NCBI GenBank assembly: GCA_037200965.1
Contig: JBBCGK010000001.1
Span: 224,001-288,000, forward strand
Direction of reading: 5' to 3'
DNA from: a bacterium
Lineage (GTDB): Bacteria > Patescibacteriota > Minisyncoccia > Phycocordibacterales > Phycocordibacteraceae
Length of the DNA stretch: 64,000 nt
In this document: one piece after another, positions 16,380-48,805 of the stretch
Layout of the letters: the number at the start of each line of letters is the position of its first letter
Position numbering within the stretch: position 1 is the stretch's first letter
The notes under the pieces: generated by a model
What the model was told of the DNA's origin: nothing
The model's database searches: none
The model's input: the letters and a program-made list of their open reading frames with translations, nothing else
Translations under genes and position numbers: made by a program

Positions 16380-16381
16380 GG

Positions 16382-22870: not shown

Positions 22871-23764
22871 CTATCCTCCCGGAGCGCATACGCCCGAGAG
22901 CGTCTTCGCGCCCGGAACGCCGCAGCGGCTTGCGGAACATGCCCATGCGCTCATTGTCGGCGTATAGAGGCCGCAGGCGGCCTGCGTGTTGATTTTCGGA
23001 TCCTGAGCCGCACGAACGCACTGAGTATAGAGATTCTGGTCTTTAACGGAAGAGTCGCACCACCCTACCTTGCCCTGATTCCGTATGTACTGCCCCGAGC
23101 ACGGGTGCGTGAATGCGGCCGGGCAATTAAGACTGCCGAGCTTCGTCGTCGTGAGATTGATCTGCCAAAGTCCCCAAGAATAGCTCGGTCCCTTTCCCTT
23201 ATCGAGCTTGTCGGATCCGCTCGGGATCGCGGTTTGTCCGCCCGCGCTTTCGAGATTGCATACTTTCGACGCCACTTCCCCGTTTGCCGCGAAGCATGTT
23301 CCTTGGAGGCCTTGCACGCTGCAGGGGTTGTTCGCGTTTGAAGGCACCTTGCACGAACTGTTTCCCGAACTCGGCGTCGCGGAAACATTGGTCGCCGTTA
23401 CTGGTGCCCGCGGCGTGCTGAGCTCAAGACAGGCAGCCTCGCCCCCGGAAATGATCGCGTTCCACGGCCCGAACGTGCCGTTATAGAGCGCATTCATGAC
23501 CGTATTGACGATAAGCCATGCACCAAGGACGACCAGAAGACCGATTACCGTCTGCAGCACCACGGTTCGCGCCTGCTTCACGTTATCCGGACTCGCGGCG
23601 TTGGTTACGAACAGGAATCCCGCGTACACCAGCAGAAGCACGGCAAAAAAGACCGCCAGATACAGGCCGAATTTGAGAAGGTTCTGAACTACGGCGAAAA
23701 AACCGCCCCAGCCGCAGGCGCAATGCTGGCAGATCTCGGGGACGATGCTCCCGGTGAAGTCCAT
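22871..23764 (-). CDS. pilin-like two-TM N-terminal domain fused to Cys-rich extracellular domain
   Basis: N-terminal TM - short polar loop (NAASPDNVKQAR) - TM - LIVNTV architecture matches the pilin-like array at 36902..39247; C-terminal 200 aa has 20 Cys. Confidence 0.5.
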   Translation of the reverse strand: MDFTGSIVPEICQHCACGWGGFFAVVQNLLKFGLYLAVFFAVLLLVYAGFLFVTNAASPDNVKQARTVVLQTVIGLLVVLGAWLIVNTVMNALYNGTFGPWNAIISGGEAACLELSTPRAPVTATNVSATPSSGNSSCKVPSNANNPCSVQGLQGTCFAANGEVASKVCNLESAGGQTAIPSGSDKLDKGKGPSYSWGLWQINLTTTKLGSLNCPAAFTHPCSGQYIRNQGKVGWCDSSVKDQNLYTQCVRAAQDPKINTQAACGLYTPTMSAWACSASRCGVPGAKTLSGVCAPGG

Positions 23765-23837
23765 ATGAGTATGTATATACTACCGTATCTTTTCGCTGCA
23801 CGAACGCTCTCCCCAGTAAAATAAGAGCATCAGTCCC

Positions 23838-24521: not shown

Positions 24522-24528
24522 TGGATAC

Positions 24529-24600
24529 GGGTCCATAGTTTCAATGGTAAAACGCTTCTCTCCAAAAGAAGTATTGCTGGTTCGAGTCCAGCTGGGCCCG
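24529..24600 (+). tRNA. tRNA-Trp (anticodon CCA)
   Basis: acceptor GGGTCCA/TGGGCCC (one G-U), U8 A9, D-stem GTTT/AAAC, anticodon arm CTTCT-CTCCAAA-AGAAG, T-arm GCTGG-TTCGAGT-CCAGC, discriminator G. Confidence 0.8.
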
Positions 24601-24622
24601 CTAAAAGTGATACACTGAGCGC

Positions 24623-25024
24623 ATGGAAACTATTGCCGTACGTCTTACCGATGGGCAAGATTTACTGGTGGAAATCAAGGACGTAACCTTTAAACAGGAT
24701 ATCGAAGCGGGCGTTATTCTTTCCGGAGTCGGAAGTTTGAAGAAAGCGAAAATCCGTGTTCCGGTGATAAACGGTGAAGTAAAGTACATCGAACCACAGA
24801 ACCTAGAGATCGATGCGCTGCATGGAACAGTGTCAAAAAACGGTTGTCATGTGCATATTACTGTTTCTGATATTTCAGGAAACGCCTATGGAGGGCATAT
24901 AAAGGAAGGGTGTATCGTCCGGACTACATGCGAACTGGTGATAGGAATAGTGAAGAACACCCGCTTTAAGCGCACACTAGATCCCGCTACCGGATTTGAA
25001 GAGCTCGTAATCGAAACCGCTTAA
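24623..25024 (+). CDS. PPC/DUF296 domain protein
   Basis: 133 aa; pattern ...ILSGVGSL...ALHGTVSKNGCHVHITVSD..GNAYGGHIKEG typical of PPC (PF03479). Confidence 0.55.
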   Translation: METIAVRLTDGQDLLVEIKDVTFKQDIEAGVILSGVGSLKKAKIRVPVINGEVKYIEPQNLEIDALHGTVSKNGCHVHITVSDISGNAYGGHIKEGCIVRTTCELVIGIVKNTRFKRTLDPATGFEELVIETA

Positions 25025-26090
25025 ACCCCTCTTGTCCGAAACCAGAAATCATTCTTTATCTCTTCCGTAAGGCGATACGCATCGGCGTGGGAGAGGACGC
25101 CAAGATATGAATTAAAAGATGAAAGGACAGTTGTTTCACTTGTATTGCCTGTCCTAAATTCCGCTGCACGCTTCCGAAGCTTCCGGATGATTCTCTGTTT
25201 TGTCTTCCGGCGTAGGGCGATATGCCCGGGCAATACGACGTATCCGAGGAAGTCGATCCCTTGTCGATACGTGCGGATAAAGACTTTATCAGGATGAAGG
25301 GAGAGGTGAAGTCGTTCTTCAAGAAACGTGCCAATTTCGGGAATCAGACTCTCAAGATACGAACGGTCTCCTGACACGATTACGAAATCATCCGTATATC
25401 GCATATAATGTTTGACCCTAAGCCCATGCTTTATAAATTGGTCGAGCTCGTTCATATACACGTTGGCGAAAAGCTGGCTCGTAAGATTGCCGATCGGCAC
25501 TCCGTTCCTTGGCGTATCGTCCCCCCCCCCCCCCCCCCATTCAATCCGGCCGTATAGCTTTCGATAACTTCTTCGAGAAGCCAGAGAACTTCCGGATCGG
25601 CGATTTTCTTTCTGAGAATGCCGAGCAGTACCGCGTGATTGATGGTGTCGAAAAACTTCCGTACGTCGCACTTCAAGGCGAAACAAGGCCGCGTCCCGTT
25701 CGCACTTACCGCACGCAGCGAATGCTTCAAATATTCGACGCCTTTGTGCGTGCCCTTTCCTATCCGGCAGGAAAAAGAGGACGCTATAAAGGTCGGCTCG
25801 AAAACCGGATTGAGTATCTTAAAAATCGCATGGTGGAGTACGCGGTCGCGTACCGTCGCCTTATGTATGCGCCGTATCTTTGGGTCGCGGATCCAAAAAC
25901 CCCGGTACGGCCCGTGGCGGTAATACTTGCCGCGCAGCTCCCGAGCAAGTTTGAAAAGTTCATACTCGACGTTTTGCTCGAAAGCCGCCACGTCCGGTTT
26001 GCCGCGCTTATCGCGCTTAAAGATATCCCACGCCTCGAACAGGTTTTCTGGCGAGGTTATCGATCCGTATAAGTCCTTATATACCTTCAT
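25021..26090 (-). CDS. DGR-type reverse transcriptase, interrupted by a -1 frameshift in a poly-G tract
   Basis: Two overlapping ORFs (25452..26090 and 25021..25686) that together give a 356-aa RT: N-terminal fingers, IGNLTSQ (the I/LGxxxSQ motif diagnostic of DGR RTs), YTDD catalytic motif; frames differ by one nt at the homopolymer. Confidence 0.8.
25521..25538. repeat. homopolymer tract (18 C on plus = poly-G in RT coding strand)
   Basis: length 18 from ORF-track arithmetic (my visual count of the line suggested up to 22); 19 or 22 nt would put both RT halves in one frame. Confidence 0.8.
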
Positions 26091-26444
26091 ATGAATAGTG
26101 ACCTAGACATACCGATTTTCAAGAAGAGTTACGACCTGTATAAGATGTTCTACGGCTACCGCGCCGACGTGTCGAAGCAGGATCGATACACGATCTGGCA
26201 GCGTTCGGAGAATTCCATCCTCGACATCGTCGAGGCGATTCTGCTTGCAAGCCAGTCAAGTAAAGCGGAGAAACTTCCGATACTTGAGGGGGCGAGCGTG
26301 AAGCTCAACCTGGTACGGATTCTGGTTCGACTCACGAAGGACGTGAAAGCCATCGATAACAAGAAATACCTTGCGCTTGAAGCGAACGTTGACGAGATCG
26401 GCAGGATGCTTGGCGGATGGATCCGTTCGGCCAAGGAACGGTAG
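26091..26444 (+). CDS. avd: Avd-like four-helix-bundle protein (DGR accessory variability determinant family)
   Basis: 117 aa; C-terminal DEIGRMLGGWIRSAK matches the bAvd/four-helix-bundle family; start codon directly abuts the RT start (CAT|ATG). Confidence 0.7.
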   Translation: MNSDLDIPIFKKSYDLYKMFYGYRADVSKQDRYTIWQRSENSILDIVEAILLASQSSKAEKLPILEGASVKLNLVRILVRLTKDVKAIDNKKYLALEANVDEIGRMLGGWIRSAKER

Positions 26445-27276
26445 GAGAAATCCGCCGAGGAGGCGGATCTTCTTCCGGATAGAGAAACGACTGCCAGGCA
26501 GCGGCCAGACCGAGGTCGGAGACGCGGTAGCTGTCCCAGTAGGGGCTGACGTTGACGGACTCGGAGTCGACGCCGACATAGACGTGATTGCCGTCCGCGT
26601 CGAGACTGGACGTGCGAACGTAGAGACTCTTGAAGAGCCAAACGCCACGGACTTCGAAGAAGACCGTGATGAACCAGCTCGTCTCGGCGGCGTTCGGGAC
26701 GCGTTCGGTGTTCGAGGGCAGCAGGGTCTGTTCGCCCCAGGTTTTGCTCGTCGAACCCGTGACTTCCGTCTTCTTGTGGGCGAACCACCCGGAGCCGGTG
26801 AGATCGCTCTGCGCGAACCTCGCCTGCTCGTACCAGCCGCCGGTCTTGCTGGAGAAGAGCTTGGGCTTCAGGGCACGGATGGCCAGGAGCGCGAGCATCT
26901 GCGGCGAGTGCGGCATCAGGGCATAGCCAGCGGCCTTGAGCGCGTTCAGCGTCTCGACCGGCGGAATGCTGTCCGCGAGCGCTTCGATCTGCTGCGCGCT
27001 GTAGGCGATGTCCGGACGCTTCGCCATGATCTCTTCGGCGGTGATGAAGTCGCCGCCAAGGATGGAACGCGCGAGCGTGTAATCCGGCTGCTTTGCCGAA
27101 AGGCGCGTCACCAGGGCGACGAACCCTTCGTCGAATTCACCGCGGCGCCTGAAGAGGCGCTGGTGAGCTTCGTGATCGAGGGGAACATCGCTGCGAATGC
27201 GCGCGGCGGCGGATGCGATCATCTCGTCGAGGTGGTCGTGTTGGCCTGACGTGGCCGGGGATGCCGACATGGTCAT
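26332..27276 (-). CDS. hypothetical protein, candidate DGR target (unverified)
   Basis: 314-aa ORF upstream of RT on same strand; Gly/Trp-rich C-terminal region (TGGWYEQARF...GSGWFAHKK...); last about 37 codons are antisense to avd and look non-protein-like, so the true 3' end is uncertain. Confidence 0.4.
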   Translation of the reverse strand: MTMSASPATSGQHDHLDEMIASAAARIRSDVPLDHEAHQRLFRRRGEFDEGFVALVTRLSAKQPDYTLARSILGGDFITAEEIMAKRPDIAYSAQQIEALADSIPPVETLNALKAAGYALMPHSPQMLALLAIRALKPKLFSSKTGGWYEQARFAQSDLTGSGWFAHKKTEVTGSTSKTWGEQTLLPSNTERVPNAAETSWFITVFFEVRGVWLFKSLYVRTSSLDADGNHVYVGVDSESVNVSPYWDSYRVSDLGLAAAWQSFLYPEEDPPPRRISPTVPWPNGSIRQASCRSRQRSLQAQGISCYRWLSRPS

Positions 27277-27324
27277 ATTCCTTTTTCAATGCCCGAGTCG
27301 TCGGACTTGCGTCTTGCCTGTGTA

Positions 27325-27399
27325 AGGCGAGCTATTTACGGCCTAGTTGTAAAATGTTTCGACAGATACTGTCGAAAATAAGCCGTAAATAGCTCGCCT
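27325..27399. repeat. perfect 18-bp-arm palindrome with nested 9-bp hairpin
   Basis: AGGCGAGCTATTTACGGC ... GCCGTAAATAGCTCGCCT with inner TTTCGACAG-ATA-CTGTCGAAA; in AT-rich intergenic region upstream of the 26332..27276 gene. Confidence 0.7.
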
Positions 27400-27573
27400 C
27401 ACGAGTTCTTGGTTATCAAAGAGCCGATTGCGGTCAAGCGTACACGATATACGATATATTGTCAAGTATGCATTTAGTACGGACCGGCAGTGTGTACTTG
27501 CCGTGTAGTCCGGAAACAACAGACGCCCGACTCCAATCCTTCGGGCGACTGTCGTCAGGCATCGTATTCGCTC

Positions 27574-27888
27574 TTATCCCCTGGCTTTCTCCGAATCAAA
27601 GAGTTCGATCCGCCCGAGAAGCGATCGGAGCTTGAATTTCACGCGCGCATCTTTCGAGGTTCCCGTCTTCACGAGCAGGAACAGGCAGTCGGCGGCAAAC
27701 GCGTCGCTCAACCCCAGAAAACTCCTGCCCAGCTCCTTCTTCGCCATTTGTTCGATGCGGCCTCTCAGTTGCTGAAGATGGCGAACCTCGTCGGGTGTCG
27801 GGTATTTTCTGCGACCCGTATCCGCCCTGATGCTGTAGTAATACTCGCGCACGGATATGCCTTGCTGCACTGCAACTCTCAGTTTCAC
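27574..27888 (-). pseudogene. IS3-family transposase N-terminal fragment (remnant)
   Basis: GISVREYYYSIRA...DEVRHLQQLRGRIEQ resembles the HTH_21 region (GVSRSGYYAWLKR...) of IS3 OrfB; no catalytic DDE region follows. Confidence 0.35.
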
Positions 27889-27974
27889 TGTCGTAGGGTC
27901 CTTTCAGCCCGGGCTAATGCGGACGAAACCGCAAGAACGACCATGGAAAGTATACCATTTTGAAATCAGGTCAG

Positions 27975-28003
27975 AAAAAGCGCCCCTTCGGGGGCGCTTT
28001 TTC
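27975..28003. terminator. bidirectional intrinsic terminator
   Basis: AAAAAGCGCCCC-TTCG-GGGGCGCTTTTT. Confidence 0.6.
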
Positions 28004-35329: not shown

Positions 35330-36337
35330 ATGAAACATGACATCAGCTCTAGCGACAGCATTAGAACTGGACTGTGGGTATCACTTCTTGCGGGACTTGT
35401 TGCCGCACTGATCGTCTACTGGGCACTTGATGATTTTGGCCCCTATATCGCAGGTGCAGGAGCTTGTGCAGCCCTCGGCATGGTAGCTGGAACGCTCAAT
35501 AAGTCGGGCTATCTCGGCTATACCCCTCCCGGGGAAGTCGGCGCAGACACGATAAACGGTGAACTGACCGGCAGGATTCGCGGGCCAGGTTATCCGTGGG
35601 CAATTCCCGGTCTTGGCGGCCAAATCCCCCTGAACGTTCAGGAGCGTAAGATTTCACCGCGTATCTTTACCGAACTCGTCGGAAAAGTACCGGTAGAAGT
35701 TGAGCTTTTGAGTACAGGCCGGATCGTCGATGCACGGAAGCACTTCCAGGCGCAACAATCTGAAGATATCCTGCTGCCCGAGTTCATCGAAACGCAGGCG
35801 CGAGCCTTCATGGGCCCGTGGAAAGACGCCGGTGGCGTAATCCTGCAGAAGGATCTGGTTGCCGAATATCTCGGGCTCCCGGCAAAGGCAGATGATCGCG
35901 GCGAACATTCGAAGCTCGAGGCAAAACTCCTCGAGTGCACTGTCGTTACCGAAGAGGACGACACGCCCGATTTGCCAAAAAGCGCCGTCAGGACGCTTAT
36001 GGCGAACGCGGGCAAAGTGCGCGAACAAGCCGCGAAATGGGGCCTCGAAATCGGCGTGATGCAAACCAGGCATTTCGACCTTCCGCAAAGCCTGAAAGAC
36101 ATCGGCGCGCTCGCGCTTATCAACATCAAGCGCGGGGAGATGATCGAGGAACTCAAGAAGCACAAGGGTATCCCCGAGCAAGATATTCTCAACTCCGTCG
36201 ACATGCTGATGAAGCTGCCGATCACAAAATCGGTCTCGGACATCCAGATCCGCGATCTCGACGCAGTGGCGGCGCACTTCGGCAAAGCAATCGCCGAATT
36301 GCTCTTCCGCTACATCAAAAACACAGGAGGCAAATAA
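35330..36337 (+). CDS. membrane protein with possible SPFH/band-7-like domain
   Basis: N-terminal TM helices, PGYPWAIPGLGGQIPLNVQERKISPRIF resembles the SPFH core; weak. Confidence 0.35.
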   Translation: MKHDISSSDSIRTGLWVSLLAGLVAALIVYWALDDFGPYIAGAGACAALGMVAGTLNKSGYLGYTPPGEVGADTINGELTGRIRGPGYPWAIPGLGGQIPLNVQERKISPRIFTELVGKVPVEVELLSTGRIVDARKHFQAQQSEDILLPEFIETQARAFMGPWKDAGGVILQKDLVAEYLGLPAKADDRGEHSKLEAKLLECTVVTEEDDTPDLPKSAVRTLMANAGKVREQAAKWGLEIGVMQTRHFDLPQSLKDIGALALINIKRGEMIEELKKHKGIPEQDILNSVDMLMKLPITKSVSDIQIRDLDAVAAHFGKAIAELLFRYIKNTGGK

Positions 36338-36819
36338 TGGCTACAGCCACCACAGCAACGACAACATCCGGAACTCAAGCGAGCGATGGACAAAATCGCG
36401 GACTCCCACCCAAAGAACTCTGGCCGCGCGTTCTGAAGTGGGGCGGCCTCGGAATCGCAGCGATCATACTGATCGCTGGAGCTAAAAGTCTTTATGCTGA
36501 TCATAAGACTCAGGAACAATCACGCCAAGCCGAAGCCGCCGTCCTTGTCTGCCCGCCCGCAAACGCAAGTTTGCAGCAATGCAGGATGCTCGTCGGAACG
36601 GTGAATAAGATCGACACGAGCGCATGCTCCACGGTCGAATTCCGGCCGATACCGAAGCCGGAATACGCCAAGGCGGAGTATCTTCCCGCCGGTCTCCGTG
36701 ACGTCCGGCAAAACTATCAGCGCTGGACGGGAACGGAAGATCTCCCGGCTCATATCGACGCCTGGCGGATCGAGCCCACTGCGGGCGAAATCCCCCAAGG
36801 CTACCAGTGCCTCAACTAG
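36337..36819 (+). CDS. hypothetical membrane-anchored protein
   Basis: strong AGGAGG RBS, Thr-rich N-terminus, one TM helix, 4 Cys. Confidence 0.4.
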   Translation: MATATTATTTSGTQASDGQNRGLPPKELWPRVLKWGGLGIAAIILIAGAKSLYADHKTQEQSRQAEAAVLVCPPANASLQQCRMLVGTVNKIDTSACSTVEFRPIPKPEYAKAEYLPAGLRDVRQNYQRWTGTEDLPAHIDAWRIEPTAGEIPQGYQCLN

Positions 36820-36901: not shown

Positions 36902-37177
36902 CTAGGATGTAAACTTCGGTACCGACGGAATGCCGAACGTGCCCGTAATGACGCCCAATATGCCAAACACGCCGAAAATGATGACGAGGCCGACCAAGCC
37001 CCAGAGAATGGAACTCCTTCCCTCTTCCCGCGCGGTCTCGTCCCCGGCATTCGCAACGAACTTGAAGACGCCCCAGAGGAAGATGAGAAATGCCGCCGCA
37101 GCGATAAGCATGAGGAGCGGATTCACGATCTGCACCACGACGGTCTTGAGGAAATTATTCAATACGTCCATAGGCAT
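36902..37177 (-). CDS. T4SS-type (TrbC/VirB2-like) small two-TM pilin family protein, paralog 1
   Basis: TM - GDETAREEGR loop - TM - GILGVITG; member of tandem array. Confidence 0.55.
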   Translation of the reverse strand: MPMDVLNNFLKTVVVQIVNPLLMLIAAAAFLIFLWGVFKFVANAGDETAREEGRSSILWGLVGLVIIFGVFGILGVITGTFGIPSVPKFTS

Positions 37178-37185
37178 AAGAATAA

Positions 37186-37222
37186 CACAAAGCCCCGGCC
37201 AGCGGCCGGGGCTTTGTGTTAA
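37186..37222. terminator. bidirectional hairpin between pilin paralogs
   Basis: CACAAAGCCCCGGCC-AGC-GGCCGGGGCTTTGTG. Confidence 0.45.
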
Positions 37223-37236
37223 AACGCCGGGAGAAA

Positions 37237-37590
37237 CTAGAAGTCTGCCTGCGGAAGCGGAGGCGTCGCGTTATTGGTCGAGAAGGTACCTACGAGGATA
37301 TTCACGAGGCCCCAGATCGAGACCATAACGAAGAAGCCGATAAGGCCGTAGAGCATGAGTTTCTTGCCCTTTTCCTTCGCGTCTTCGTCGTTCGCCCCGA
37401 TGATGAAGACCTGGAAAGCGCCCCAGATGAAGACGATGAAGGCGACGGCAAAGAGCACCGGCACCAGGACGTTATTGATGATATTGATGACCGTGGTACC
37501 CACATCGGATACGCTTGAGATAGTGGCGGCACCGGCAAGGAGCGGCGTCAAAAGTGCGATTGCGGCAAACGGCGCGAGGTATTTCTTCAT
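37237..37590 (-). CDS. pilin-like two-TM protein, paralog 2 (signal peptide + core)
   Basis: signal peptide, core VLVPVLFAVAFIVFIWGAFQVFIIGANDEDAKEKGKKLMLYGLIGFFVMVSIWGLVNIL. Confidence 0.6.
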   Translation of the reverse strand: MKKYLAPFAAIALLTPLLAGAATISSVSDVGTTVINIINNVLVPVLFAVAFIVFIWGAFQVFIIGANDEDAKEKGKKLMLYGLIGFFVMVSIWGLVNILVGTFSTNNATPPLPQADF

Positions 37591-37699
37591 AATGGTGATA
37601 TTCGTATAATGGCTCCCCGGCGTTGAGCGGAGTTCCCCTTATTCTAGCTTGCCTTCGCCCCAGGGCAAGCCGCGTCCCTGATTCGTGTGGATAAGAACC

Positions 37700-38122
37700 T
37701 TAAAGGGTCGGGTAGTCGGGCCGCGCGTATCCTCCAAGGCCGAGCGTATTGGAGAGGATATTGACCAGGCCCCACAGCGAGAACATCACCACGAAACCGA
37801 TCAGCCCCCAGAGGATGAACTGCCTTCCTTCCTTGCGCTTGTCCTCGTCCGCACCGCCCACGATGAAGTAGTTGAAGACGCCCCAGAGGAATACAAGGAA
37901 GGCGATGGTAAACAGGATGGGTACGAGAATATTGTTGATGACCACGAGCACAAGATCGCCGTAGTGGCCGAAGGCGCCCGCATTAACAACCGACACCGTC
38001 GGCCCCGGGCTTATCTGCGGAGTCCCGTCTCCCGTGACAGGATCGATCGCCGCAGCCGCATAGGAACAAAGCGGCGCCCCAAGAACCAGAAGCGCGATCA
38101 GGAAAGGAAGATATCGTTTCAT
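37700..38122 (-). CDS. pilin-like two-TM protein, paralog 3
   Basis: signal peptide, core ILVPILFTIAFLVFLWGVFNYFIVGGADEDKRKEGRQFILWGLIGFVVMFSLWGLVNIL. Confidence 0.6.
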   Translation of the reverse strand: MKRYLPFLIALLVLGAPLCSYAAAAIDPVTGDGTPQISPGPTVSVVNAGAFGHYGDLVLVVINNILVPILFTIAFLVFLWGVFNYFIVGGADEDKRKEGRQFILWGLIGFVVMFSLWGLVNILSNTLGLGGYARPDYPTL

Positions 38123-38128
38123 ACGGGA

Positions 38129-38446
38129 TTAATAAGAAGTCGGATAAGCCGGATGGCGGTACCCGCCAAGATCGAACGTGTTAACGAGTATGTTGACCAG
38201 CCCCCATACCGAAAGCATGACGAAGAATCCGACGAGGCCGTACAGGATATACGTGCGGCCCGTCTCGCGTTTCGTTTCGTCGTCCGCGCCCAGTATGAAG
38301 TATTGGAAGACGCCCCAGATGAAGACGATGAAGGCGACGGCGAAAACGAGGGGAACGGCGACATTGTTGATGAGGCCGAGAATAGTACCGGCGATGCCCT
38401 GGAGGTTGCCGCAGTTTCCTACGCACAGCGAGAATGAGAATCCCAT
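38129..38446 (-). CDS. pilin-like two-TM protein, paralog 4
   Basis: core VAVPLVFAVAFIVFIWGVFQYFILGADDETKRETGRTYILYGLVGFFVMLSVWGLVNIL. Confidence 0.6.
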   Translation of the reverse strand: MGFSFSLCVGNCGNLQGIAGTILGLINNVAVPLVFAVAFIVFIWGVFQYFILGADDETKRETGRTYILYGLVGFFVMLSVWGLVNILVNTFDLGGYRHPAYPTSY

Positions 38447-38457
38447 ATGGTTTAGTA

Positions 38458-38703
38458 TTATAGCGCGATTATGCTAAGGCCGATGCGTATCAATCCCCAG
38501 ACCCCGAACATGACCACAAGCCCGATCAGCCCCCAGAGGATGAACTGCCTTCCTTCCTTGCGCTTGTCCTCGTCCGCGCCGCCCACGATGAAGTAGTTGA
38601 AGACGCCCCAGAGGAATGCGAATCCCGCAAGCGCAAAGACGACAGGAATGACAATCCCGCCTATGATGGCTACGATCGAATTGACGAGTTCGGCAAAGGT
38701 CAT
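38458..38703 (-). CDS. pilin-like two-TM protein, paralog 5
   Basis: start at internal Met (MTFAELV...); core identical over about 32 aa to paralog 3 and shares a 95-nt near-identical DNA stretch with it. Confidence 0.55.
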   Translation of the reverse strand: MTFAELVNSIVAIIGGIVIPVVFALAGFAFLWGVFNYFIVGGADEDKRKEGRQFILWGLIGLVVMFGVWGLIRIGLSIIAL

Positions 38704-38704
38704 A

Positions 38705-39247
38705 TCAGGTGCCAAGCGCCTGTACCGTCGCCTGGATTCCGAGCGAGATCGCCTTGGCGCCAAGGAGAATGAGCGCTCCGACGACCGTCCACAGGAGCGC
38801 CTCGCGCGCCTCCTTTATTTTTTCTTCCGCTCCCTGCGCGGTCACGAATTTGAAACCTACGTAGACGAGCATCAAGACGATGACGATGCCGCCGATCTGT
38901 ATCACGAGGTCGAGGACGGCATTGAGGAAATCCGGAATCGTCGAAAAGCCGAGAGGATTCGTAAGGCCGCTTCCGCCTCCCCCGCCGCCTGGAACCGTTC
39001 CCGCCGGACGGCATACTCCCGCCACGCAGGTATCAGTGCCGGTGCAGGCAGGCTTGCAGGCTGAACCGCCGGGAACGGTACCGGCCGCTTGGCATTTGCC
39101 GTTGACGCATGTATCGGTACCGGTGCAAGCAGGAAGGCAGGCGGAGTCGGCGGCCTGCGCAGGAGCAGGTACGAGGATAAACACCATGAGAAACGCGACC
39201 GTGGCCGGAACAATAAAATACTTGCCTGTAGCGTTCATGATTTTCAT
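38705..39247 (-). CDS. pilin-like two-TM domain (C-terminal) fused to N-terminal Cys-rich repeat domain, paralog 6
   Basis: signal peptide, two copies of ACxPACTGTDTCVxGxCxxAGTVPGG, Gly run, then TM - GAEEKIKEAR loop - TM. Confidence 0.5.
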   Translation of the reverse strand: MKIMNATGKYFIVPATVAFLMVFILVPAPAQAADSACLPACTGTDTCVNGKCQAAGTVPGGSACKPACTGTDTCVAGVCRPAGTVPGGGGGGSGLTNPLGFSTIPDFLNAVLDLVIQIGGIVIVLMLVYVGFKFVTAQGAEEKIKEAREALLWTVVGALILLGAKAISLGIQATVQALGT

Positions 39248-40542
39248 TGTATCGCCTGAGTCAGCGCGCGCTCGGCGGAAACAAGGGCTTCGCTTAGGGA
39301 TACGCGTCCGGTAATCACGTCCATAATCATAGCGCCGAATATGCGGTCCGTATCCTCGGGCGCTGGGGACAGCCATCCCCGGCTTATAAGCGCTTCGCGA
39401 TAAAAGACCGAAGCGAAAGGATCGGCGGGCTCGGTTCCAAGAAGCGACAGGCGTGCGGGCGCAAGCCCCGTGGCGCCCGCAAGCGCGGTCATAACCGCGG
39501 GATCCGCGAGCGCGACGGCGGCGCTATAGGCACCGGCGGGGTTCGGACTCCCTTTGGGGATAGCGAACGCGTAGAGGTCGCCGAACGTAATCCGGTTCAC
39601 GGCATTCCCCGTCTGCGGCAAGGCCGCGACATCGAAATCGAGATTGGGATTCGCCGCACGCAGGAACGGCGCATCGGACGCGAAGCCGATATACAGCGCG
39701 AGATCGCCGGAGACGAACGCCTGCCTTGAATCCGGGAGCGACCCGTTCCAGGTATAGGAAACTTTCGAAGGATCGGCGAACTGGGTGTAGTAGCGCACCA
39801 CGGCCTCCCCGGGAGAGACGCCGCCAAAGCTTTGCGTCTCGGCGCCAAGCGATGCCTTGAGGCCGAGTGTCGTGCGGGCCGAGAGCGGTACTCCGCTTTG
39901 GAGAAAGAGCGCGGAAAGAATAGCGCCCGCGTGGTCGACGTTGGCATAGGTTCCAAGACCGATGAGCCCGCGCTCGATGTTCCTCCCTCCGTCAAGCTGC
40001 GCCGTACGCGGCACGAGTCCGACAAGGGCCTCCCATGCCGACGGAGGAGCTACGATACCGGCGGACGAGAGAGTCGCGCGGTTGTAGTAGAGGACGAGCG
40101 GATCGACCGCGAGCGGAATGCCGTAGACCCCGTCGGACGCAAGGAAAAGCTGCCCTTCCTGCACGAACGCGTCGGTAAAGGCGCGCGCCGAAATCGAGCT
40201 GTACGGGATCGGTATAAGCTTGTCCTCAAGCGAGACGAGATGCTCCTGGCTTATGAGCACCAGGTCGGGGCCCGTACCCGACGCCAGAGCGTCGACGAGT
40301 TCCCGTTCGAAGGTCGCGGGCTGCTTGCCGACATACCGTATGCCCTTAAGCTCGGTATTCTGGCCCGTAATGTTCGCAAGAGCCGGGGCGATCTCGTCCT
40401 GAGGGAGCGTGCCCCATATCGTCACCGTCCCGATGGAGCCGGTGCCGGAGGAGCCGGTGAAGGTCGCGAAGACGAAGATGCCGATTAGCGCGAGGAGGAC
40501 AAACGCGCCGATGATTCCCGCCTGGAAAAATGAGATCTTCAT
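39244..40542 (-). CDS. signal-anchored extracellular solute-binding-protein-like protein
   Basis: N-terminal TM, about 400-aa periplasmic-type domain loosely resembling family 1 SBPs; weak. Confidence 0.35.
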   Translation of the reverse strand: MKISFFQAGIIGAFVLLALIGIFVFATFTGSSGTGSIGTVTIWGTLPQDEIAPALANITGQNTELKGIRYVGKQPATFERELVDALASGTGPDLVLISQEHLVSLEDKLIPIPYSSISARAFTDAFVQEGQLFLASDGVYGIPLAVDPLVLYYNRATLSSAGIVAPPSAWEALVGLVPRTAQLDGGRNIERGLIGLGTYANVDHAGAILSALFLQSGVPLSARTTLGLKASLGAETQSFGGVSPGEAVVRYYTQFADPSKVSYTWNGSLPDSRQAFVSGDLALYIGFASDAPFLRAANPNLDFDVAALPQTGNAVNRITFGDLYAFAIPKGSPNPAGAYSAAVALADPAVMTALAGATGLAPARLSLLGTEPADPFASVFYREALISRGWLSPAPEDTDRIFGAMIMDVITGRVSLSEALVSAERALTQAIQ

Positions 40543-40543
40543 G

Positions 40544-41074
40544 TTAGGGAGCGGTAAATACGATGCCGTAGTGATGGGGGCCGGCGCTGAACTTCTTAAC
40601 CACATGGAAACCGGCGGCGGCAAAGACCGCTTCGGCCGCTTGTTCGTTCACCACGTGTGAAGGGTCCGGGCCGAGCCCCCCGTACGCTCCGGCCCAATCG
40701 ATGACCAGAAGCTTCCCTCCGGGCTTAAGAATACGGCGCAGTTCGGCCGCGACTATCGCCTTCTCTTTTATCTGAAACAGCGTGTTGGAAAGAATCGCAC
40801 CGTCGACCGCCTGATCCCGAAGCGTGGTTCCGCGCGGCTTCTCGATATCGCCCCATACGGTTTCTATGGTCCGCACCCCCTGCTCCCGCGCCGTTCCCTG
40901 AATGCGCTTCAGCACATCCTCCTGAACATCGATCGCATATACCCGCCCGTCCACCCCCACGGCGTGCGCCGCGGCAAGGGAATAGTGTCCGCTCCCCGCC
41001 CCGAGGTCCGCCACTTTCACTCCTTCCCTGAGGCCCATCTGCAGTACGTTCGTCTTCGGATCGGCGAAATTCAT
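40544..41074 (-). CDS. class I SAM-dependent methyltransferase
   Basis: motif I VADLGAGSGHYS, motif II region VYAIDVQ, start trimmed to Met18. Confidence 0.65.
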   Translation of the reverse strand: MNFADPKTNVLQMGLREGVKVADLGAGSGHYSLAAAHAVGVDGRVYAIDVQEDVLKRIQGTAREQGVRTIETVWGDIEKPRGTTLRDQAVDGAILSNTLFQIKEKAIVAAELRRILKPGGKLLVIDWAGAYGGLGPDPSHVVNEQAAEAVFAAAGFHVVKKFSAGPHHYGIVFTAP

Positions 41075-41194
41075 GCGATCAGTATAGCAAGAGCGCCCGC
41101 GCTGCTGGCGCATAGTCAACAGCATATAAAAACAGGCGGTCTTTCGGCCGTCCGCGCCACAAGCATTGCTTCCGGGAGCGAAACGGCCCGGCGA

Positions 41195-42679: not shown

Positions 42680-45600
42680 TTAAAGCGCCACCATCGACGC
42701 GATTGAATCGCCCTCGTAGAGCCGCATGATACGCACGCCCTGGGTCGCGCGGGAAAGCGACGGCACTTCCTTGGCGGTGATGCGGATAACCTGTCCCTTT
42801 TTAGAAACAACGACGATTTCCTCATCCGACACGTCCTTCCCGAGAAGCACTTTCGCGCCGATGATCTCGCCCGTCTTCGGTGTCACCTCTGCCGTCTTGA
42901 TGCCGGAACCTCCCCGGCCTTGCACCTTGTATTCGGAAAGCTCGGTCGACTTGCCGTATCCTTTCGACATGATGACGAGGAGGGACGCGTCCTTGGCTGC
43001 GGCCGAAATCACTTCCGCGGAAACGACCGTGTCGCCCTTGCGCACGCTCATGCCGCGCACGCCTCCGGCGGTCCGCCCCATCGCGCGCACGTCGCCCTCC
43101 TCGAAGCGGATGCTTTGGCCCTTGGCGGTTACGATCGAAACGCTGTCGCTCTCTTCGGCAAGATGCGCGGCAACGAGCTTATCGCCGTCCTTGAGGTTGA
43201 TCGCGATGATGCCCGAGCGGCGTACATCCGCGAAGGACTTTGCTTCCACTTTTTTCACAATGCCGTTTGCCGTCACGAAGAATACCGACAAGGCGTCGCG
43301 CTCGGCGCCCTTGGGGACCGGAAGTACCGAAGTCACCTTCTCGTCACCGGCAAGCGGAAGGAAGTTCATCATGCTCTTTCCCTTGGTCGCGCGCTTCCCT
43401 TCGGGGATCTCGTACATCTTGAGCTGGTATGCCTTGCCGTAGTCGGTGAAGAAGAGGAGGTCGGAGTGCGCCGAGGCCGCGAGGAAGTGCGTCACGACGT
43501 CCTCCTCCTTGGTCGAGAGGTCGACGACGCCGACGCCGCCGCGCTTCTGCGTCTTGTATTCCGACGGGTTCGTGCGCTTCACGTAGCCTCCGGCGGTGAG
43601 GACGAGGACGGACTCCTCGTCCGGCACCAGGTCTTCGACGGAGATGTTCTGAACCCCGCCTTTGACGATCTTCGTGCGGCGGTCGTCGCCGTATTTCTCG
43701 CCGATAGCGACGAGTTCCGTCTTCACGACCGCGAGGATGTTCTTTGCGGAAGAGAGTATCTTCTCGAGCTTCGCGATAAGCGCCTGGACCTCCGCCAGTT
43801 CGTCCTCGATCTTCTTGCGCTCGAGGCCCGCGAGTTTCGACAGCCGCATCTCGAGGATCGCCGCCGCCTGAAGCTCCGAAAATGCGAATTTCTTCTGGAG
43901 CGCGAGGGACGCGGCCGGGACATCGGCGGCTTTCTTGATGATCGCGATGACCTCGTCGATATGGTCGAGCGCTTTCGAAAGTCCGAGGAGGATGTGCTCG
44001 CGCGCCTTCGCCTGCCGGAGATCGAATTCGGTACGCCGCTTCACCACTACTCTCCGGTGTTCTATGAAATTCTCGAGAATGCCCTTGAGCGAAAGCGTCT
44101 GCGGCACGCCGTCGACGAGCGCAAGCATGTTGTAGTGGAAAGCGCTCTCGAGCTCGGTGTGCTTATAAATCGTATTGAGGACGGCCTGCGGGTGCGCCGT
44201 GCCTTTGAGCTCGACGACAATGCGGGTCTCAAATGACGTCGTCGACTCGTCGCGCAGGTCCCGTACGCCCTCGAGCTTCTTGTCGCGCACGAGATCGGCG
44301 ATGCGGGTGATGAGGTCGGCTTTATTGACGCGGTACGGGATCGAGGTGATGACAATTTTCGAATCCTTCTTGCCGTCGTCGACGATCTCCGCTTCGCCGC
44401 GCACCACGACCCCGCCCCGTCCGCTTATGTACGCCTGCCTGATATCGGCCTGGTTAAAGGCAACCCCCCCGAGCGGGAAATCCGGGCCTTTGACGAATTT
44501 GAGGAGGTCCTCGGTCGTCGCCTCGGGCTCGTCGATGAGGTGCACGGTCGCGTCGACCACTTCCCGCAGGTTATGGGGCGGTATTGCGGTTGCCATGCCG
44601 ACCGCGATACCGAGCGTGCCGTTAAGGAGAAGGTTCGGCACGGCGGCGGGAAGCACGGATGGCTCCTTACGGCTCGCGTCATAGTTGGGGTTCCATTCGA
44701 CCGTGTCCTTGTCGAGGTCGTTCATGATGTCCTCCGCGATGCGCGACATCTTGGCCTCGGTATTGTGGTTTATGAATCCGTTAGCGACAAAGGAGTGGCA
44801 CTCGCTTCGCACCCGGATCGAATACACAGGAGCTGGTGCCTCGTTCGTTACGGAAGCCACTACATCGAACAAATACCGGTGGCGCGAGAGTTCGCCGAAC
44901 AGCGCCTCGACCGTCGGACGCACATGCGGCAGCACGGCGGAGGCGACGAGCGGGCCATGTTCGGCAAGCGCGGTGTATCGGTCGAAATTATGCTTGCGTA
45001 CGAATCTCCCGATACCCTGATAGCTCGGCGGTGCAAGATGCGAACGCACGTATCCTGCGATGAACGGCACGTAGTCGGTAGCCGATGAGTCCTTGGAGAG
45101 CCGCGCGATCGCTTTGCCAAGCTTCGTTTTCTTGCGCGCGGAAACAAAACCGATCTCGCGCTCAAAGAGGCGGTAGTCATGGAGACCCCGTATATAGAGC
45201 TTTTCGATCGCGCGGTGGCAGTCGTGACGGCGCGTGCTTGCGATGCCAAGGCGCATAAGAACGACCTGCATTTCGTCGAGAAGCGCCGTGCTCTTAGATA
45301 CGACGCTCAATTCCGTCATTTTCGACGAGAAGCTTATGCCGCCGTCGCCTTCAAAATACGCCTGAAGGAAAGCTGCGACGACTGGCTTCGGAGACCGCAG
45401 CACCGAGAACGGGATACGCTTTTCGGGCGATTTTACCGGCGCAAGCCCTATAGCGCGCAGAAACGCAATCACATATTGCGAGTGAATCTCGATGGTGTAG
45501 TACGGCTTCTTACCATAGGAAGACGGTTCGCGCCTGAAGTGGTGCAGGCGGCAGCCAGGAAACACGCGGGCGAAGCGCTCGACGAAGGCCTGGATGAGGT

Positions 45601-46489
45601 CGGGGTCGCTGTTGCAGAACTCCAACTCCTTTTCCTTGATGGTACCTTCCGATACGAGGAGGCCGAGGATGAATGCCAGGTCTTCGGTAAGCTCCGCAGG
45701 CAGCTGCTGTACTGTAATCCGTTTGTTCGCGACTTTCGGAACAAAGGGCGTGAGGGAGAGCGGGTGTTCCGGCCACAAAAGGTCGGGGGTCCGATCCATC
45801 ACCACCACGTCGCCTTCGTCGATATCGGCAAGAAGCTTCCACGCGAAGCGGGGTACGCCAGTTGCCGGATCCTCGTGCCAGATAAGAAGCGGGTGGTTGC
45901 GGGAACCACGGATCCGGTATCCCCGATTGGTTTTGAGGGCTATCGTTGGATGAACGCCGCTATCGAACCACGCATCGGCCGAATTGATCCGGCCGTTCAT
46001 CGAAATCACCCGCGCCTCGATTTCTTCCGTGCCGTCGTCGGATAGTTCCTTGATGGGAACCAGACCCTTATCTGTCGCAACAAGCGTGTCCCCCGTGACG
46101 CAATACCGCATGGCGGCTGGCGAGTCGCCGTCGATCGAGCCGAAATTGCCCTGCCCGATCACGAGCGGATAGCGGTGCGAGAAATCCTGCGCAAGCTTCG
46201 TCATCGCGTCATAGACGCTCGCGTCGCCGTGCGGATGGTATTTGCCGAGCACGTCGCCGACGACAAGCGCGGACTTGCGGAATTTCGCGCCCGCCGTGAG
46301 CCCAAGCTCGCTCATGGCGTAAAGGATGCGGCGGTGTACCGGCTTCAGGCCGTCGCGCACGTCGGGAAGCGCGCGGGAGGTGATCACGCTCATCGCGTAA
46401 TCGACGTAGGAGGTGCGCATCTCGCCCGTGATGCTCTGCCCTATGATGCGCCCGCCAAGCGGTACGGCCGACTGTTCTTCCTTAGCCAT
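42680..46489 (-). CDS. gyrA: DNA gyrase subunit A, intein-containing
   Basis: 1269 aa; GyrA N-terminal breakage-reunion domain (AAMRY active-site Tyr region), C-terminal beta-pinwheel repeats; intein inserted after AAMRY. Confidence 0.9.
44762..46102 (-). mobile_element. GyrA intein with LAGLIDADG homing-endonuclease domain (aa 130-576)
   Basis: AAMRY | CVTGDTLV ... FINHN | TEAKM; two LAGLIDADG blocks ([24 protein letters not shown]); classical GyrA intein insertion site. Confidence 0.8.
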
Positions 46490-47790: not shown

Positions 47791-48289
47791 TGCACATGCT
47801 GTTCACCCGAACACTTGCAGGGCAATTCTGGGTGGTATGCTGTCAAGGTTTTGGGGGACATCTCCCGAACATTAGAGGAGTCGTTTGACATGCCAGCGAA
47901 AGCGGAAATGCAGTTCGCCATCACGGCCGATGTGGCCACCGACGAAGCGAAAAGCCACCAGCACCTCGACGCCGGTCCGGACAGCCCGGCGAAGCGCGCG
48001 AAGAAGGCCGGCCAGGCTCCCACAGCGTAGGCGCAAGGCAAAGTGCGCCGCGGTTCCCGGGATTACGCGAAAGCGTTTTTCCGGGTCCCGCGGCCGCGCT
48101 CTCGCCATTTTCTCTCCTGGCATCATTCGACTCCCAATCAAAGGTCCCGTTTACGGGGCCTTTTGTTTTATTACGACATATCCACAGGGGTATTGACAAT
48201 TCAGCACGGGGTGTGCTAGGGTCCCCTAATCGGACCTGGACTGGCCAGGAAGAACCGATACAGTCATCCTCGAGAAAGGGGAAATTCCA

Positions 48290-48805
48290 ATGAAGCACCA
48301 TCACTATGGCTTTGCGCTCGCAGTTGCCGCCATGTTCACGCTCTCGGCTCCGGCCTTCGCCAATGATTCCAGCTGGACGTCGCCCGCGCACTTCAAGAAC
48401 ACGACTTCGGTCGCCGCGATCATCGACGGCTCCTCCGACGCCATCATGAAGGACACGATCACGGCCGCCATCGGCCTCGACATGACGCTCGCGCTCATCG
48501 AACACGATCCGCAGATCAATGGCTACGACGCGATCGCGCTGAACGGCGGCGCCAAGCAGACCACCGTCATCATCCACTACGTCGATCTCGACACCGTGGA
48601 CATGCCGCTGGTGATGAACGACTCCGGCAAGACCGTCGCCATGGGCCCCGCCGGCCTCGGCGCCGATTCTGACAGCCTCATCCAGAAGATCTATGATGCG
48701 GCCGCCACGCTGACCAATCAGATGCGCGCCGACTCCGCCTACCAGCTCGCTGCCGGCCTCCACACGCCGTCGCAGCTCGGGCAGTACGCCGACAAGCTGG
48801 CGTAA
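48290..48805 (+). CDS. secreted hypothetical protein
   Basis: cleavable signal peptide (AFANDSS), 171 aa; upstream TTGACA-17-TAGGGT promoter-like motif at about 48194..48222. Confidence 0.5.
   Translation: MKHHHYGFALAVAAMFTLSAPAFANDSSWTSPAHFKNTTSVAAIIDGSSDAIMKDTITAAIGLDMTLALIEHDPQINGYDAIALNGGAKQTTVIIHYVDLDTVDMPLVMNDSGKTVAMGPAGLGADSDSLIQKIYDAAATLTNQMRADSAYQLAAGLHTPSQLGQYADKLA

Follow-up and report, generated by a model that had tools for sequence, protein, structure and literature searches.

A conserved chromosomal array of six VirB2-like T4SS_pilin genes downstream of a sugar-type SBP-like gene in a Kaiserbacteria-like Patescibacterium

Results

Gene content and chromosomal context

The DNA analysed in this work (the window, 64,000 nucleotides) is part of a chromosomal contig of 960 kb that belongs to a Kaiserbacteria-like Patescibacterium (Paceibacteria). 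Six tandem genes for small membrane proteins lie at positions 36902-39247 of the minus strand, as a preliminary description of this DNA had reported, and the product of each is a membrane hairpin, two helices with a short charged loop between them. They are numbered p1 to p6 by rising position, p6 being read first, and the intergenic gaps across them are 1-109 nt (Table 1). The gene order is a methyltransferase gene, a membrane-anchored sugar-type SBP-like gene and then the six VirB2-like T4SS_pilin genes. The methyltransferase gene ends 1 nt ahead of the SBP-like gene, the stop codon of which overlaps the start of p6 by 4 nt. The neighbours of the array are housekeeping genes (gyrA, infB, rbfA, clpB, rpmG, ftsA, ftsZ), and this synteny (gyrA ... 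infB, clpB) is kept over about 80 species. No relaxase, integrase or phage structural gene was found near the array. The locus is a chromosomal operon inherited vertically in this Kaiserbacteria-like Patescibacterium. Independent support comes from a second assembly (GCA_015655515.1), which is 100% identical across 10,587 nt and the contig of which stops at position 37823 of the window, within the p3 conversion tract described below.

Table 1. Coordinates (window positions), strand and main characteristics of the annotated features
Feature	Position	Strand	Characteristics
Methyltransferase gene, class I SAM-dependent	40544..41125	-	First in cassette; Pfam Methyltransf_31/11/25
Membrane-anchored sugar-type SBP-like gene	39244..40542	-	SBP_bac_8 76.3 bits, SBP_bac_1 61.4 bits
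p6	38705..39247	-	180 aa; signal peptide (predicted), duplicated Cys-rich motif, Gly-rich linker, VirB2-like hairpin; PF18895 41.4 bits
p5	38458..38703	-	81 aa from ATG; short hairpin pilin without signal peptide, starts MTFAELV; PF18895 30.8 bits
p4	38129..38446	-	105 aa; hairpin pilin, N-terminal Cys pair, GGY..P.YPTSY tail; PF18895 36.2 bits
p3	37700..38122	-	140 aa; signal peptide (predicted), variable N-terminal segment, hairpin; PF18895 33.3 bits
p2	37237..37590	-	117 aa; signal peptide (predicted) and hairpin, most conserved class; PF18895 43.1 bits
p1	36902..37177	-	91 aa; short hairpin pilin without signal peptide, last gene of the operon; PF18895 34.6 bits
Internal promoter region 5' of p2 (predicted)	37641..37694	-	Promoter-like site from scan: TTATCCACA box (37694-37686), then TTGCCC-16-TAGAAT (37668-37641)
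Stem-loop between p2 and p1	37183..37221	-	Perfect 18-bp stem; terminator-like site
Gene-conversion tract, p3 copy	37797..37892	.	96 nt, 1 mismatch vs 38522-38617
Gene-conversion tract, p5 copy	38522..38617	.	96 nt, 1 mismatch vs 37797-37892
Gene of the seventh protein	22871..23764	-	Separate gene, 297 aa; VirB2-like hairpin, disordered linker, Cys-rich lysozyme-like (SLT_3-type) domain

A search for cognate VirB4/VirB6-like genes had been suggested. VirB4, VirB3, VirB6 and VirD4 genes are absent from the 64-kb window and, at all 80 related loci, from the 10 kb around the array, where none of the ORFs of at least 450 aa encodes a VirB4-like ATPase. The array thus lies outside any T4SS gene cluster of the Ca. 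Southlakia epibionticum type, and the company of a VirB4-containing T4SS, a functional trait of TrbC/VirB2 pilins, is missing over the same distances. On the other hand, five of six related Kaiserbacteria genomes with the cassette are listed as VirB4-positive (PMC12102498, Table S1).

Hairpin proteins and their family membership

The TM1/charged loop/TM2 core is common to all six array proteins, which have two or three hydrophobic segments by alignment and hydropathy. The core had been described as ending in WGLVNIL, and this holds for p2-p5, whereas p1 and above all p6 are more divergent. At the N-terminus, p2, p3 (three hydrophobic segments by hydropathy) and p6 have a third hydrophobic segment and, after it, an AxA-type motif, which p1, p4 and p5 lack. 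In p6 the pilin module does stand at the C-terminus, behind a signal-peptide-like N-terminus and two copies of the Cys-rich motif SAC.PACTGTDTCV.G.C...GTVPGG. The SBP-like protein carries a hydrophobic anchor at its N-terminus, and among solved structures it is closest to family-1 sugar SBPs. Its gene has no ABC permease or ATPase gene as a neighbour.

All six array proteins exceed the gathering cut-off of Pfam PF18895 (T4SS_pilin, 26.6 bits), with scores of 30.8-43.1 bits that are far beyond chance, and they have the two transmembrane helices joined via a short charged loop that are typical of this family. The assignment to TrbC/VirB2-type pilins, proposed before any profile search, is therefore borne out at the level of T4SS_pilin in all six. 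For Pfam PF04956 (TrbC, gathering cut-off 27.9 bits), the window proteins stay below the cut-off: p6 scored 25.0 bits (E 2.2e-5), p2 13.5 bits, and the other pilins had no match. Among the cores of p6-type orthologues, 17/18 matched PF04956 at E<=1e-3 (best 5.4e-7), and homology of the p6-type proteins to TrbC/VirB2 is likely, judged from these profile matches. NCBIfam NF045849 ('Mbov_0395 family pilin-like conjugal transfer protein', cut-off 40 bits) was matched by all seven window proteins considered here (E 5.8e-11 to 3.3e-5). Only p1 passed its cut-off (41.9 bits); p2 (37.5), p3 (34.3), p4 (33.7), p5 (31.5), p6 (23.5) and the seventh protein (27.1 bits) remained below. The sequence and profile searches against solved structures returned no VirB2, TraA or TrbC pilin.

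Six fixed orthologue classes

The cassette was found in about 80 species representatives, with a methyltransferase gene and an SBP gene followed by pilin genes. A homologue of the methyltransferase was present at 79/80 related loci and adjoined the SBP gene in 71/76. The SBP-like protein is 49-57% identical to its homologues in the 80 species representatives, and the pilin genes are always downstream of it. Exactly six pilin genes were counted in 58/64 complete arrays. When the proteins were compared with those of other genomes as an orthology test, best matches fell on the same position in 91-100% of cases for p1, p2 and p6 (57/57 each) and p5 (52/57); the values for p3 and p4 were 32/57 and 17/57. 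For p2, the mean identity was 64%, and the p5 orthologues begin with MTFAQF. The six positions are six distinct orthologue classes, which diverged anciently and have kept their order through the lineage. The near-fixed gene number and the distinct classes therefore make the array ancient and fixed, and the earlier characterization of it as a diversifying locus is not upheld. The variation in sequence and length among orthologues is found mostly in N- or C-terminal extensions of p6, p4 and p3, often Cys-rich or Gly/Thr-rich, and the N-terminal extensions of the p6 orthologues are highly variable.

Internal promoter and RNA hairpins

The fifth gene, p2, has its own conserved, near-consensus promoter as predicted from sequence. 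The consensus of the relatives is tATCCACA-N17-aTTGACC-N16-TACAAT, about 30 nt ahead of the p2 ATG. The pattern TTGAC[CT]-N16-TAnAAT was matched by 47/58 sequences upstream of p2, with a 12/12 match to TTGACC/TACAAT in 38/58. The p2 promoter is flanked by TATCCACA boxes, candidate sites for DnaA. The stem-loop between p2 and p1 folds as RNA with -41.8 kcal/mol (z = -8.4), and 0/200 shuffles folded as well. Relatives have not kept it; their p2 and p1 genes mostly lie end to end. The hairpin 3' of p1 was not significant (z = -1.86).

Gene conversion between p3 and p5

A 95-nt conversion between p3 and p5 had been proposed. The event is real, its length is 96 nt with one mismatch, and the p3 coordinates given for it were 4-5 nt off: the register 37802-37896 against 38523-38617 contains 66 mismatches, and the right offset is 725 nt. 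Identity in the flanks is only 33/60 and 28/60 (47-55%). Conversion has affected the TM1-loop-TM2 core, which is conserved, and not the termini, which are exposed and variable. By comparing hairpin cores only, the longest exact stretch common to paralogues was 56 nt in this genome vs 34 nt elsewhere, and no comparable conversion tract was found in any of 937 paralogue pairs from 64 other genomes. The core of p4 is a mosaic, with best matches to the same position in 17/57, to p3 in 16 and to p2 in 24, and its termini are p4-like. The hairpin cores of p3, p4 and p5 are partly homogenised by gene conversion in this genome, and the 96-nt p3/p5 tract is the latest event. Owing to conversion, one paralogue pair is 64% identical along 72 aa. 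There are no silent or truncated donor copies.

The seventh protein, a predicted hairpin-anchored wall hydrolase

The further member announced at 22871..23764 exists and has an N-terminal hairpin, with 16 Cys (13 after residue 100) and not the 20 counted earlier. With PF18895 it scored 22.6 bits, less than the cut-off; the annotation PF18895 is carried by most of its homologues, and the HMM built in this analysis matched it with E = 1e-11 to 1e-16. The hairpin was present at the N-terminus in 64/100 homologues. The fold of the C-terminal domain is lysozyme/SLT-like, and the domain has an invariant Glu-Ser, including the conserved catalytic Glu, and a GLxQIN motif. The protein itself had no SLT_3 or SLT match at E<=1 in Pfam and none in NCBIfam. 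Among the C-domain homologues, 59/100 matched PF18896 (SLT_3; best 1.9e-12), and a sequence and profile search of the domain against solved structures gave nothing meaningful. Relatives carry SLT, VanY or other domains in place of this C-domain. Given the fold with its invariant Glu-Ser, the seventh protein is a predicted peptidoglycan hydrolase, in place of the tip or adhesin variant that had been suggested.

It resembles VirB1-type lytic transglycosylases and the PF18895 + PF18896 architecture in the lysozyme-superfamily fold, the catalytic-type Glu-Ser, the GLxQIN motif and the N-terminal hairpin of its homologues. Unlike these, it is unusually Cys-rich, lacks a direct SLT_3/SLT match and is not encoded beside virB4. 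A retroelement remnant is present near its gene, a bAvd/RT pair with the RT split by a frameshift. As for an active diversity-generating retroelement targeting the seventh protein, no template/variable repeat of at least 24 nt was found.

Discussion

Relation to known pilin arrays

VirB2-like pilin arrays of 2-11 genes were reported in 383 Patescibacteria assemblies, an array being defined as at least two PF18895/PF04956 genes in tandem or one gene apart (Quinonero-Coronel et al., 2025; PMC12102498). An essential series of pilin genes lies within the T4SS cluster of Ca. Southlakia epibionticum (Wang et al., 2023; PMC10633639), for which a review counts six pilins (PMC12857230). With six such genes in tandem, the present array is a well-characterised example of this published kind. 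It shares with the others the tandem arrangement, detection by PF18895/PF04956, similar structure with divergent sequence, a chromosomal location without a relaxase nearby, a monoderm host lineage and, as in S. epibionticum, the number of six. On the other hand, it belongs to Paceibacteria (Kaiserbacteria-like), has no virB4 cluster around it or close by, always comes after methyltransferase and SBP-like genes and has positions that are fixed orthologue classes; moreover, the 64% identity of its closest paralogue pair exceeds the published maximum of 54%.

Compared with the TrbC/VirB2 pilins of PF04956 (Agrobacterium VirB2, RP4 TrbC), the array proteins are likewise small, with two hydrophobic helices, a short charged loop and, in p2, p3 and p6, a predicted signal peptide. 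They differ in that three classes are without a signal peptide, virB3/virB4 are not linked and the host is monoderm; the significant PF04956 matches of p6-type proteins are accompanied by scores below the curated cut-off in the window. The Mbov_0395 pilin-like proteins of Mycoplasma ICEs (NF045849) are also two-helix proteins of about 80-90 aa from wall-less or monoderm lineages with an MPF-FATA-type T4SS, whereas the cassette described here is not on an ICE and six of the seven window proteins are below the equivalog cut-off.

Proposed function and alternatives

The T4SS and pilin arrays of Patescibacteria are essential for epibiotic growth in the sole species tested. We hypothesize, and hold it to be fairly probable, that the hairpins are VirB2-like pilins which are inserted in the membrane and then extracted and polymerised by a VirB4-driven T4SS encoded elsewhere, with p2 as the major subunit and the seventh gene for wall cutting. 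Within the membrane, the basic loop of each hairpin would face inwards and its two termini outwards. The T4SS that extracts and polymerises the hairpins would be VirB4-driven and of the Gram-positive type, with its genes at another place in the genome, and the product may be a short pilus or conduit at the host-cell contact. The choice of p2 as the major subunit, made on its conservation and promoter only, would leave the extension-bearing classes as minor subunits that display variable modules at the surface. In the seventh protein, the same kind of hairpin would hold a lysozyme-like enzyme with VirB1-type activity, a muramidase or lytic transglycosylase, at the external face of the membrane, where it could cut the peptidoglycan of its own cell or of the host. 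Several observations were counted against the pilus: VirB4, VirB3, VirB6 and VirD4 are absent nearby, VirB2, TraA and TrbC do not appear among the solved-structure matches, p6 is below the PF04956 cut-off, 3/6 proteins are without a signal peptide, unlike classical VirB2, and the constant link to an SBP-like gene has no known counterpart at T4SS loci. Furthermore, no filament of PF18895 proteins is known from any Patescibacterium, and the reviews cited for this present a pilus as a possibility (PMC12857230 among the sources).

Some of these observations suit another explanation, possible and on the unlikely side, in which the hairpins never form a pilus and remain in the cytoplasmic membrane as a hetero-oligomer working with the SBP-like protein, e.g., as a T4SS-independent uptake or envelope-organising module. 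The array never comes without a membrane-anchored sugar-type SBP-like gene ahead of it, and the stop and start codons overlap. At the 80 related loci, no VirB4-like ATPase gene comes closer than 10 kb to the array, the six fixed, non-interchangeable classes suit a defined complex better than a homopolymer, three of the classes have no signal peptide, and no pilus is demonstrated for the PF18895 family. Such a membrane complex is opposed by the family-level homology to TrbC/VirB2 and to ICE pilin-like proteins, and by the homologous Saccharibacteria array, which lies inside a T4SS cluster and is essential along with it. Moreover, there is no precedent for SBPs that use two-helix hairpins in place of ABC permeases, and the SBP linkage may be mere conserved synteny. 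A further reading, which we regard as quite doubtful, would make the invariant cassette a defined heteromeric VirB2-like structure of six non-redundant subunits with the co-translated SBP as partner: a T4SS-type pilus or conduit for capturing or importing host-derived molecules and not for exporting DNA or effectors, with neighbouring polymorphic genes, each for a pilin hairpin joined to a wall hydrolase, serving to open the host or own wall.

It is very doubtful that the array is chiefly a variation system, in which recombination among paralogues reshuffles surface pilin sequence for host range or for evading recognition, as was proposed for the virB2 arrays of Anaplasma and Bartonella. The recent p3/p5 tract, the mosaic core of p4 and the hypervariable N- and C-terminal extensions of p6, p4 and p3 would fit it, and the arrays of Anaplasma phagocytophilum/marginale and Bartonella are likewise tandem paralogues with a conserved hairpin and variability near the N-terminus (beside Cys) and the C-terminus (PMC3556328). 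These arrays, however, contain 8-15 genes, vary by strain and lie beside virB4-2 (PMC3556328), whereas the present one has a near-constant six and is unlinked to virB4. Conversion here hits the conserved core and not the exposed ends, has no equal in size among the 937 paralogue pairs of other genomes and proceeds without silent or truncated donors, while gene number, order and the same-position matches of most classes are fixed. Taken together, the fixed classes, the lack of linkage to virB4, the coupling to the SBP and the internal promoter argue for a defined multi-subunit structure vs antigenic variation. Even more improbable, and effectively refuted, is an origin from a mobile element, either a pilin set of a conjugative plasmid or ICE or a holin/lysis cassette of a prophage. 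The match of p1 to the Mycoplasma ICE model, the superficial likeness of small two-TM proteins and of a two-TM hairpin-lysozyme fusion to holins and endolysins, and the retroelement remnant within the window are what speaks for it. The conserved housekeeping synteny and the lack of relaxase, integrase, VirB4 and phage structural genes nearby speak against it. The eight proteins tested had no match in PHROGs at E<=0.01, where holin and phage relatives were sought, and Pfam holin matches reached only E 0.5 or weaker; the possibility that these are holin-like proteins, raised with the first description, thus did not materialize.

The locus extends the pilin-array picture to another class, Paceibacteria/Kaiserbacteria, with six non-interchangeable classes at a near-constant six per genome. 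The array is unlinked to virB4, is predicted to be always co-transcribed with a sugar-type binding protein and has a strongly conserved internal promoter before one class. The product of that class, p2, is the candidate subunit to seek in filaments.

Gene content and family assignment

The six minus-strand ORFs p1 to p6 lie in tandem where the preliminary description had placed them, and the same genes were called by an independent gene caller in the public record. As also described there, p1–p6 can be aligned over a common core of TM1, a charged loop, and TM2, and the duplicated Cys-rich motif is seen in the p6 sequence. Hydropathy gives two hydrophobic segments each in p1, p4, and p5, and three each in p2, p3, and p6, the first being signal-peptide-like. 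All six proteins belong to the T4SS_pilin family PF18895, scoring 30.8–43.1 bits against a gathering score of 26.6 bits. The proposed kinship with the classical TrbC/VirB2 family (PF04956, cut-off 27.9 bits) held in part and is weaker than that to PF18895: window p6 reached 25.0 bits, although the cores of 17 of 18 p6-type orthologues matched at E ≤ 1e-3. NCBIfam NF045849, which describes a pilin-like conjugal transfer protein found in Mycoplasma ICEs, was matched by 7/7 proteins, the separately encoded seventh protein included, with p1 above the cut-off. Profile searches found no pilins among solved-structure sequences. The holin reading, named earlier as the alternative, is left without support because a PHROGs search gave no matches.

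Features of the pilin-like array and its surroundings (window coordinates)
Feature	Position	Strand	Remarks
p1	36902–37177	−	ORF and independent gene call; class ~90 aa, without signal peptide
p2	37237–37590	−	ORF and independent gene call; class N-terminus MKKALAL..., conservation highest of six
p3	37700–38122	−	ORF and independent gene call; class with signal peptide, in some genomes a Cys-rich C-terminal extension up to 366 aa
p4	38129–38446	−	ORF and independent gene call; class with Cys pair at N-terminus, tail GGYxAPxxPxSY
p5	38458–38703	−	ORF and independent gene call; class ~89 aa, N-terminus MTFAQF
p6	38705–39247	−	ORF and independent gene call; class with signal peptide, Cys-rich or Gly/Thr-rich extension of high variability, VTLxNPL, TrbC-like hairpin
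Repeat tract, p3 copy	37797–37892
Repeat tract, p5 copy	38522–38617
p2–p1 hairpin	37183–37221		perfect, 18 bp, GC-rich; −41.8 kcal/mol, z = −8.4
TATCCACA copy	37686–37694	−	upstream of p2 promoter
TATCCACA copy	48179–48186	+	5 nt upstream of TTGACA-17-TAGGGT
Secreted 171-aa gene	48290–48805		follows TTGACA-17-TAGGGT
Two convergent genes	35330–36819	+	downstream of array
dnaB	1150–3786		one intein
gyrA	42680–46489		one intein
T2SSE/T2SSF cluster	~15200–19650		adjoins parB
Variable slot	22871–28000
Seventh protein gene	22871–23764	−	297 aa
bAvd/RT pair	25021–26444
RT ORF (YTDD)	25021–25686	−	overlaps RVT_1 ORF
RT ORF (RVT_1)	25452–26090	−	overlaps YTDD ORF
bAvd-like gene	26091–26444	+	PF22296, 59.6 bits

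Conservation of the cassette and its six positions

The array forms an operon with two genes directly upstream of p6 on the same strand, encoding a SAM-dependent methyltransferase and a 432-aa solute-binding protein (SBP)-like protein, and the stop codon of the latter gene overlaps the p6 start. The SBP-like protein combines an SBP_bac_1/8 domain with a membrane anchor at its N-terminus, and its nearest solved structures are sugar-type family-1 binding proteins. In one relative, whose pilins are just 44–65% identical, the layout is the same as in the window: lactamase-fold gene, gyrA, methyltransferase, SBP-like gene, six PF18895 genes, convergent Band7-like gene, infB, and clpB. A comparative scan was anchored on the SBP-like protein with one genome per species, and the best 80 of 183 relatives' loci were kept (Kaiserbacteria, Paceibacterota, Parcubacteria, and Minisyncoccia MAGs). 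Among these best 80, pilin-like ORFs follow the SBP gene on the same strand in 80/80 and the methyltransferase gene is present in 79/80, abutting the SBP gene in 71/76; complete arrays hold six genes in 58/64, five in 3/64, and seven in 3/64.

For 57 six-gene arrays and the window, each protein's best match was then sought in all other genomes, and it fell at the same array position in 91–100% of cases. By this measure the array comprises six deeply conserved orthologue classes rather than six recent paralogues, and the diversifying locus suggested in the preliminary description is not upheld. In the window, p1, p2, and p6 are clear-cut (57/57 same-position best matches each) and p5 nearly so (52/57); p3 and p4 are blurred (32/57 and 17/57).

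The window corresponds to bases 703,561–767,560 of a 960,259-bp contig (GCA_037975565.1), where the array's neighbours are the core genes gyrA (with intein), infB, rbfA, clpB, rpmG, ftsA, ftsZ, parB, and dnaB, and a T2SSE/T2SSF/pseudopilin cluster. With its T2SSE ATPase, T2SSF platform protein, N_methyl pseudopilin, and zeta-toxin-like kinase, this cluster represents a system of the type IV pilus or competence type, distinct from the VirB2-like array. The dnaB and gyrA inteins each carry a LAGLIDADG homing-endonuclease domain; gyrA of relative L010 lacks the intein (823 vs 1269 aa). The two convergent genes encode a 335-aa protein with a weak Band_7/SPFH match and a 160-aa protein without family match; in L010 this position is filled by a Band7-like gene.

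Gene conversion within the array

The repeat reported between p3 and p5 exists, in another register: the coordinates first given contain 66 mismatches, and the 96-nt tract located here has a single one. Its flanks are only 55% and 47% identical. Conversion of this kind is unusual: the longest exact core stretch common to paralogues is 56 nt in the window, against 34 nt in 937 paralogue pairs from 64 other genomes. The hairpin cores of p3 and p4 are also alike, and their termini retain their own class signatures. Together, the tract and the blurred p3/p4 cores show repeated intra-array gene conversion in the window genome. Another assembly is available for this organism (GCA_015655515.1); it is identical over 10.6 kb and has a contig break inside the tract, as expected for a genuine repeat.

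Promoter region of p2

A promoter-like site lies in the 109-nt gap ahead of p2. In relatives, a strikingly conserved consensus, tATCCACA-N17-aTTGACC-N16-TACAAT, is found ~30 nt before the p2 ATG, and the promoter hexamers are matched at 12/12 positions in 38/58 upstream sequences. The DnaA-box-like TATCCACA box shares 8/9 bases with the DnaA-box consensus TTATCCACA. Within 1.18 Mb of related loci, 49/104 of its occurrences fall at the p2 promoter site, and the window holds two copies only (table). A second, TTATCCAC-like box occurs in the p2 5′ UTR of relatives (L012–L091). The p2–p1 hairpin stops 6 nt short of the p1 start codon. Unlike the window genome, most relatives lack this hairpin, their p2 and p1 genes being directly adjacent. 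Since p2 combines promoter, hairpin, and the highest conservation (64% vs about 50%), it is a candidate for the abundantly expressed subunit. Another recurrent conserved element, TTATCCACATCCGGTCGG...AGATA...GATGGGGAA, was seen upstream of the SBP gene (1–9 kb in locus coordinates) in at least 10 related loci (L029, L032, L033, L037, L050, L056, L060, L073, L078, and L086).

Possible function of the array

We hypothesize that the hairpins insert into the membrane with the basic loop in the cytoplasm and both termini outside, a topology with which their sequence is compatible. A Gram-positive-type T4SS encoded elsewhere would then extract and polymerise them, and p6, p3, and p4 would come to expose their variable terminal extensions on the outside. 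This model draws on the established biology of VirB2-type pilins and on the Patescibacteria literature. No VirB4, VirB6, or VirD4-like gene was found in the 64-kb window, and no VirB4-type ATPase among ORFs of ≥450 aa within 10 kb of the array in any of the best 80 of 183 relatives' loci. Of six Kaiserbacteria genomes that carry the cassette, five are recorded as VirB4-positive in Table S1 of PMC12102498, which supports a T4SS at the level of the lineage. The main rival explanation, that p1–p6 and the SBP-like protein form a membrane-resident complex and never leave the membrane, is considered rather improbable, yet deserves some weight.

Tandem VirB2-like arrays are known from Patescibacteria (441 arrays of 2–11 genes, identity mean 25% and maximum 54%; PMC12102498), and the T4SS cluster of S. 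epibionticum holds an essential pilin gene series (PMC10633639), counted as six in a review (PMC12857230). The literature covered gave no description of fixed position-specific orthology of pilin arrays, invariant methyltransferase/SBP linkage, an array apart from virB4 in this lineage, a conserved p2 promoter with DnaA-box-like sites, or core-directed gene conversion in a pilin array. These features refine a known kind of array and do not define a new one.

The seventh protein and its variable slot

The seventh protein has 46 close homologues, mostly annotated PF18895; in their alignment E172-S173 is invariant, and a GLWQINLT motif is seen. When 1.84 billion representatives were searched, the Cys-rich C-domain of the protein turned up in 403 clusters, C-terminal in all; among sampled homologues, SLT_3 (PF18896) was matched in 59/100 and T4SS_pilin in 64/100. 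The protein is thus a divergent member of a known architecture, with a pilin-like hairpin and a domain of lysozyme-like fold, which Pfam models already cover. It is therefore a predicted wall hydrolase and no adhesin, contrary to the tip or adhesin role first considered. The same Cys-rich SLT_3-like domain is found at the very C-terminal end of ~1000-aa proteins as well (P0187, P0194, P0222, P0225, P0248, P0257, P0262, and P0266).

The slot from clpB-rpmG to miaA-parB contains, in relatives (L092 and the P0037 contig), one or two tandem genes that share the N-terminal pilin-like hairpin and differ in their C-domains (SLT PF01464, VanY PF02557, or one without family assignment); it is a variable, polymorphic, cassette-like arrangement. 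The window slot, variable and low in GC (0.48), also contains a bAvd-like gene back-to-back with a reverse transcriptase (RT), and a frameshift within a poly-G run splits the RT into two ORFs. The search for a template/variable repeat of ≥24 nt gave none, and the pair resembles a retroelement that is decayed or unusual.
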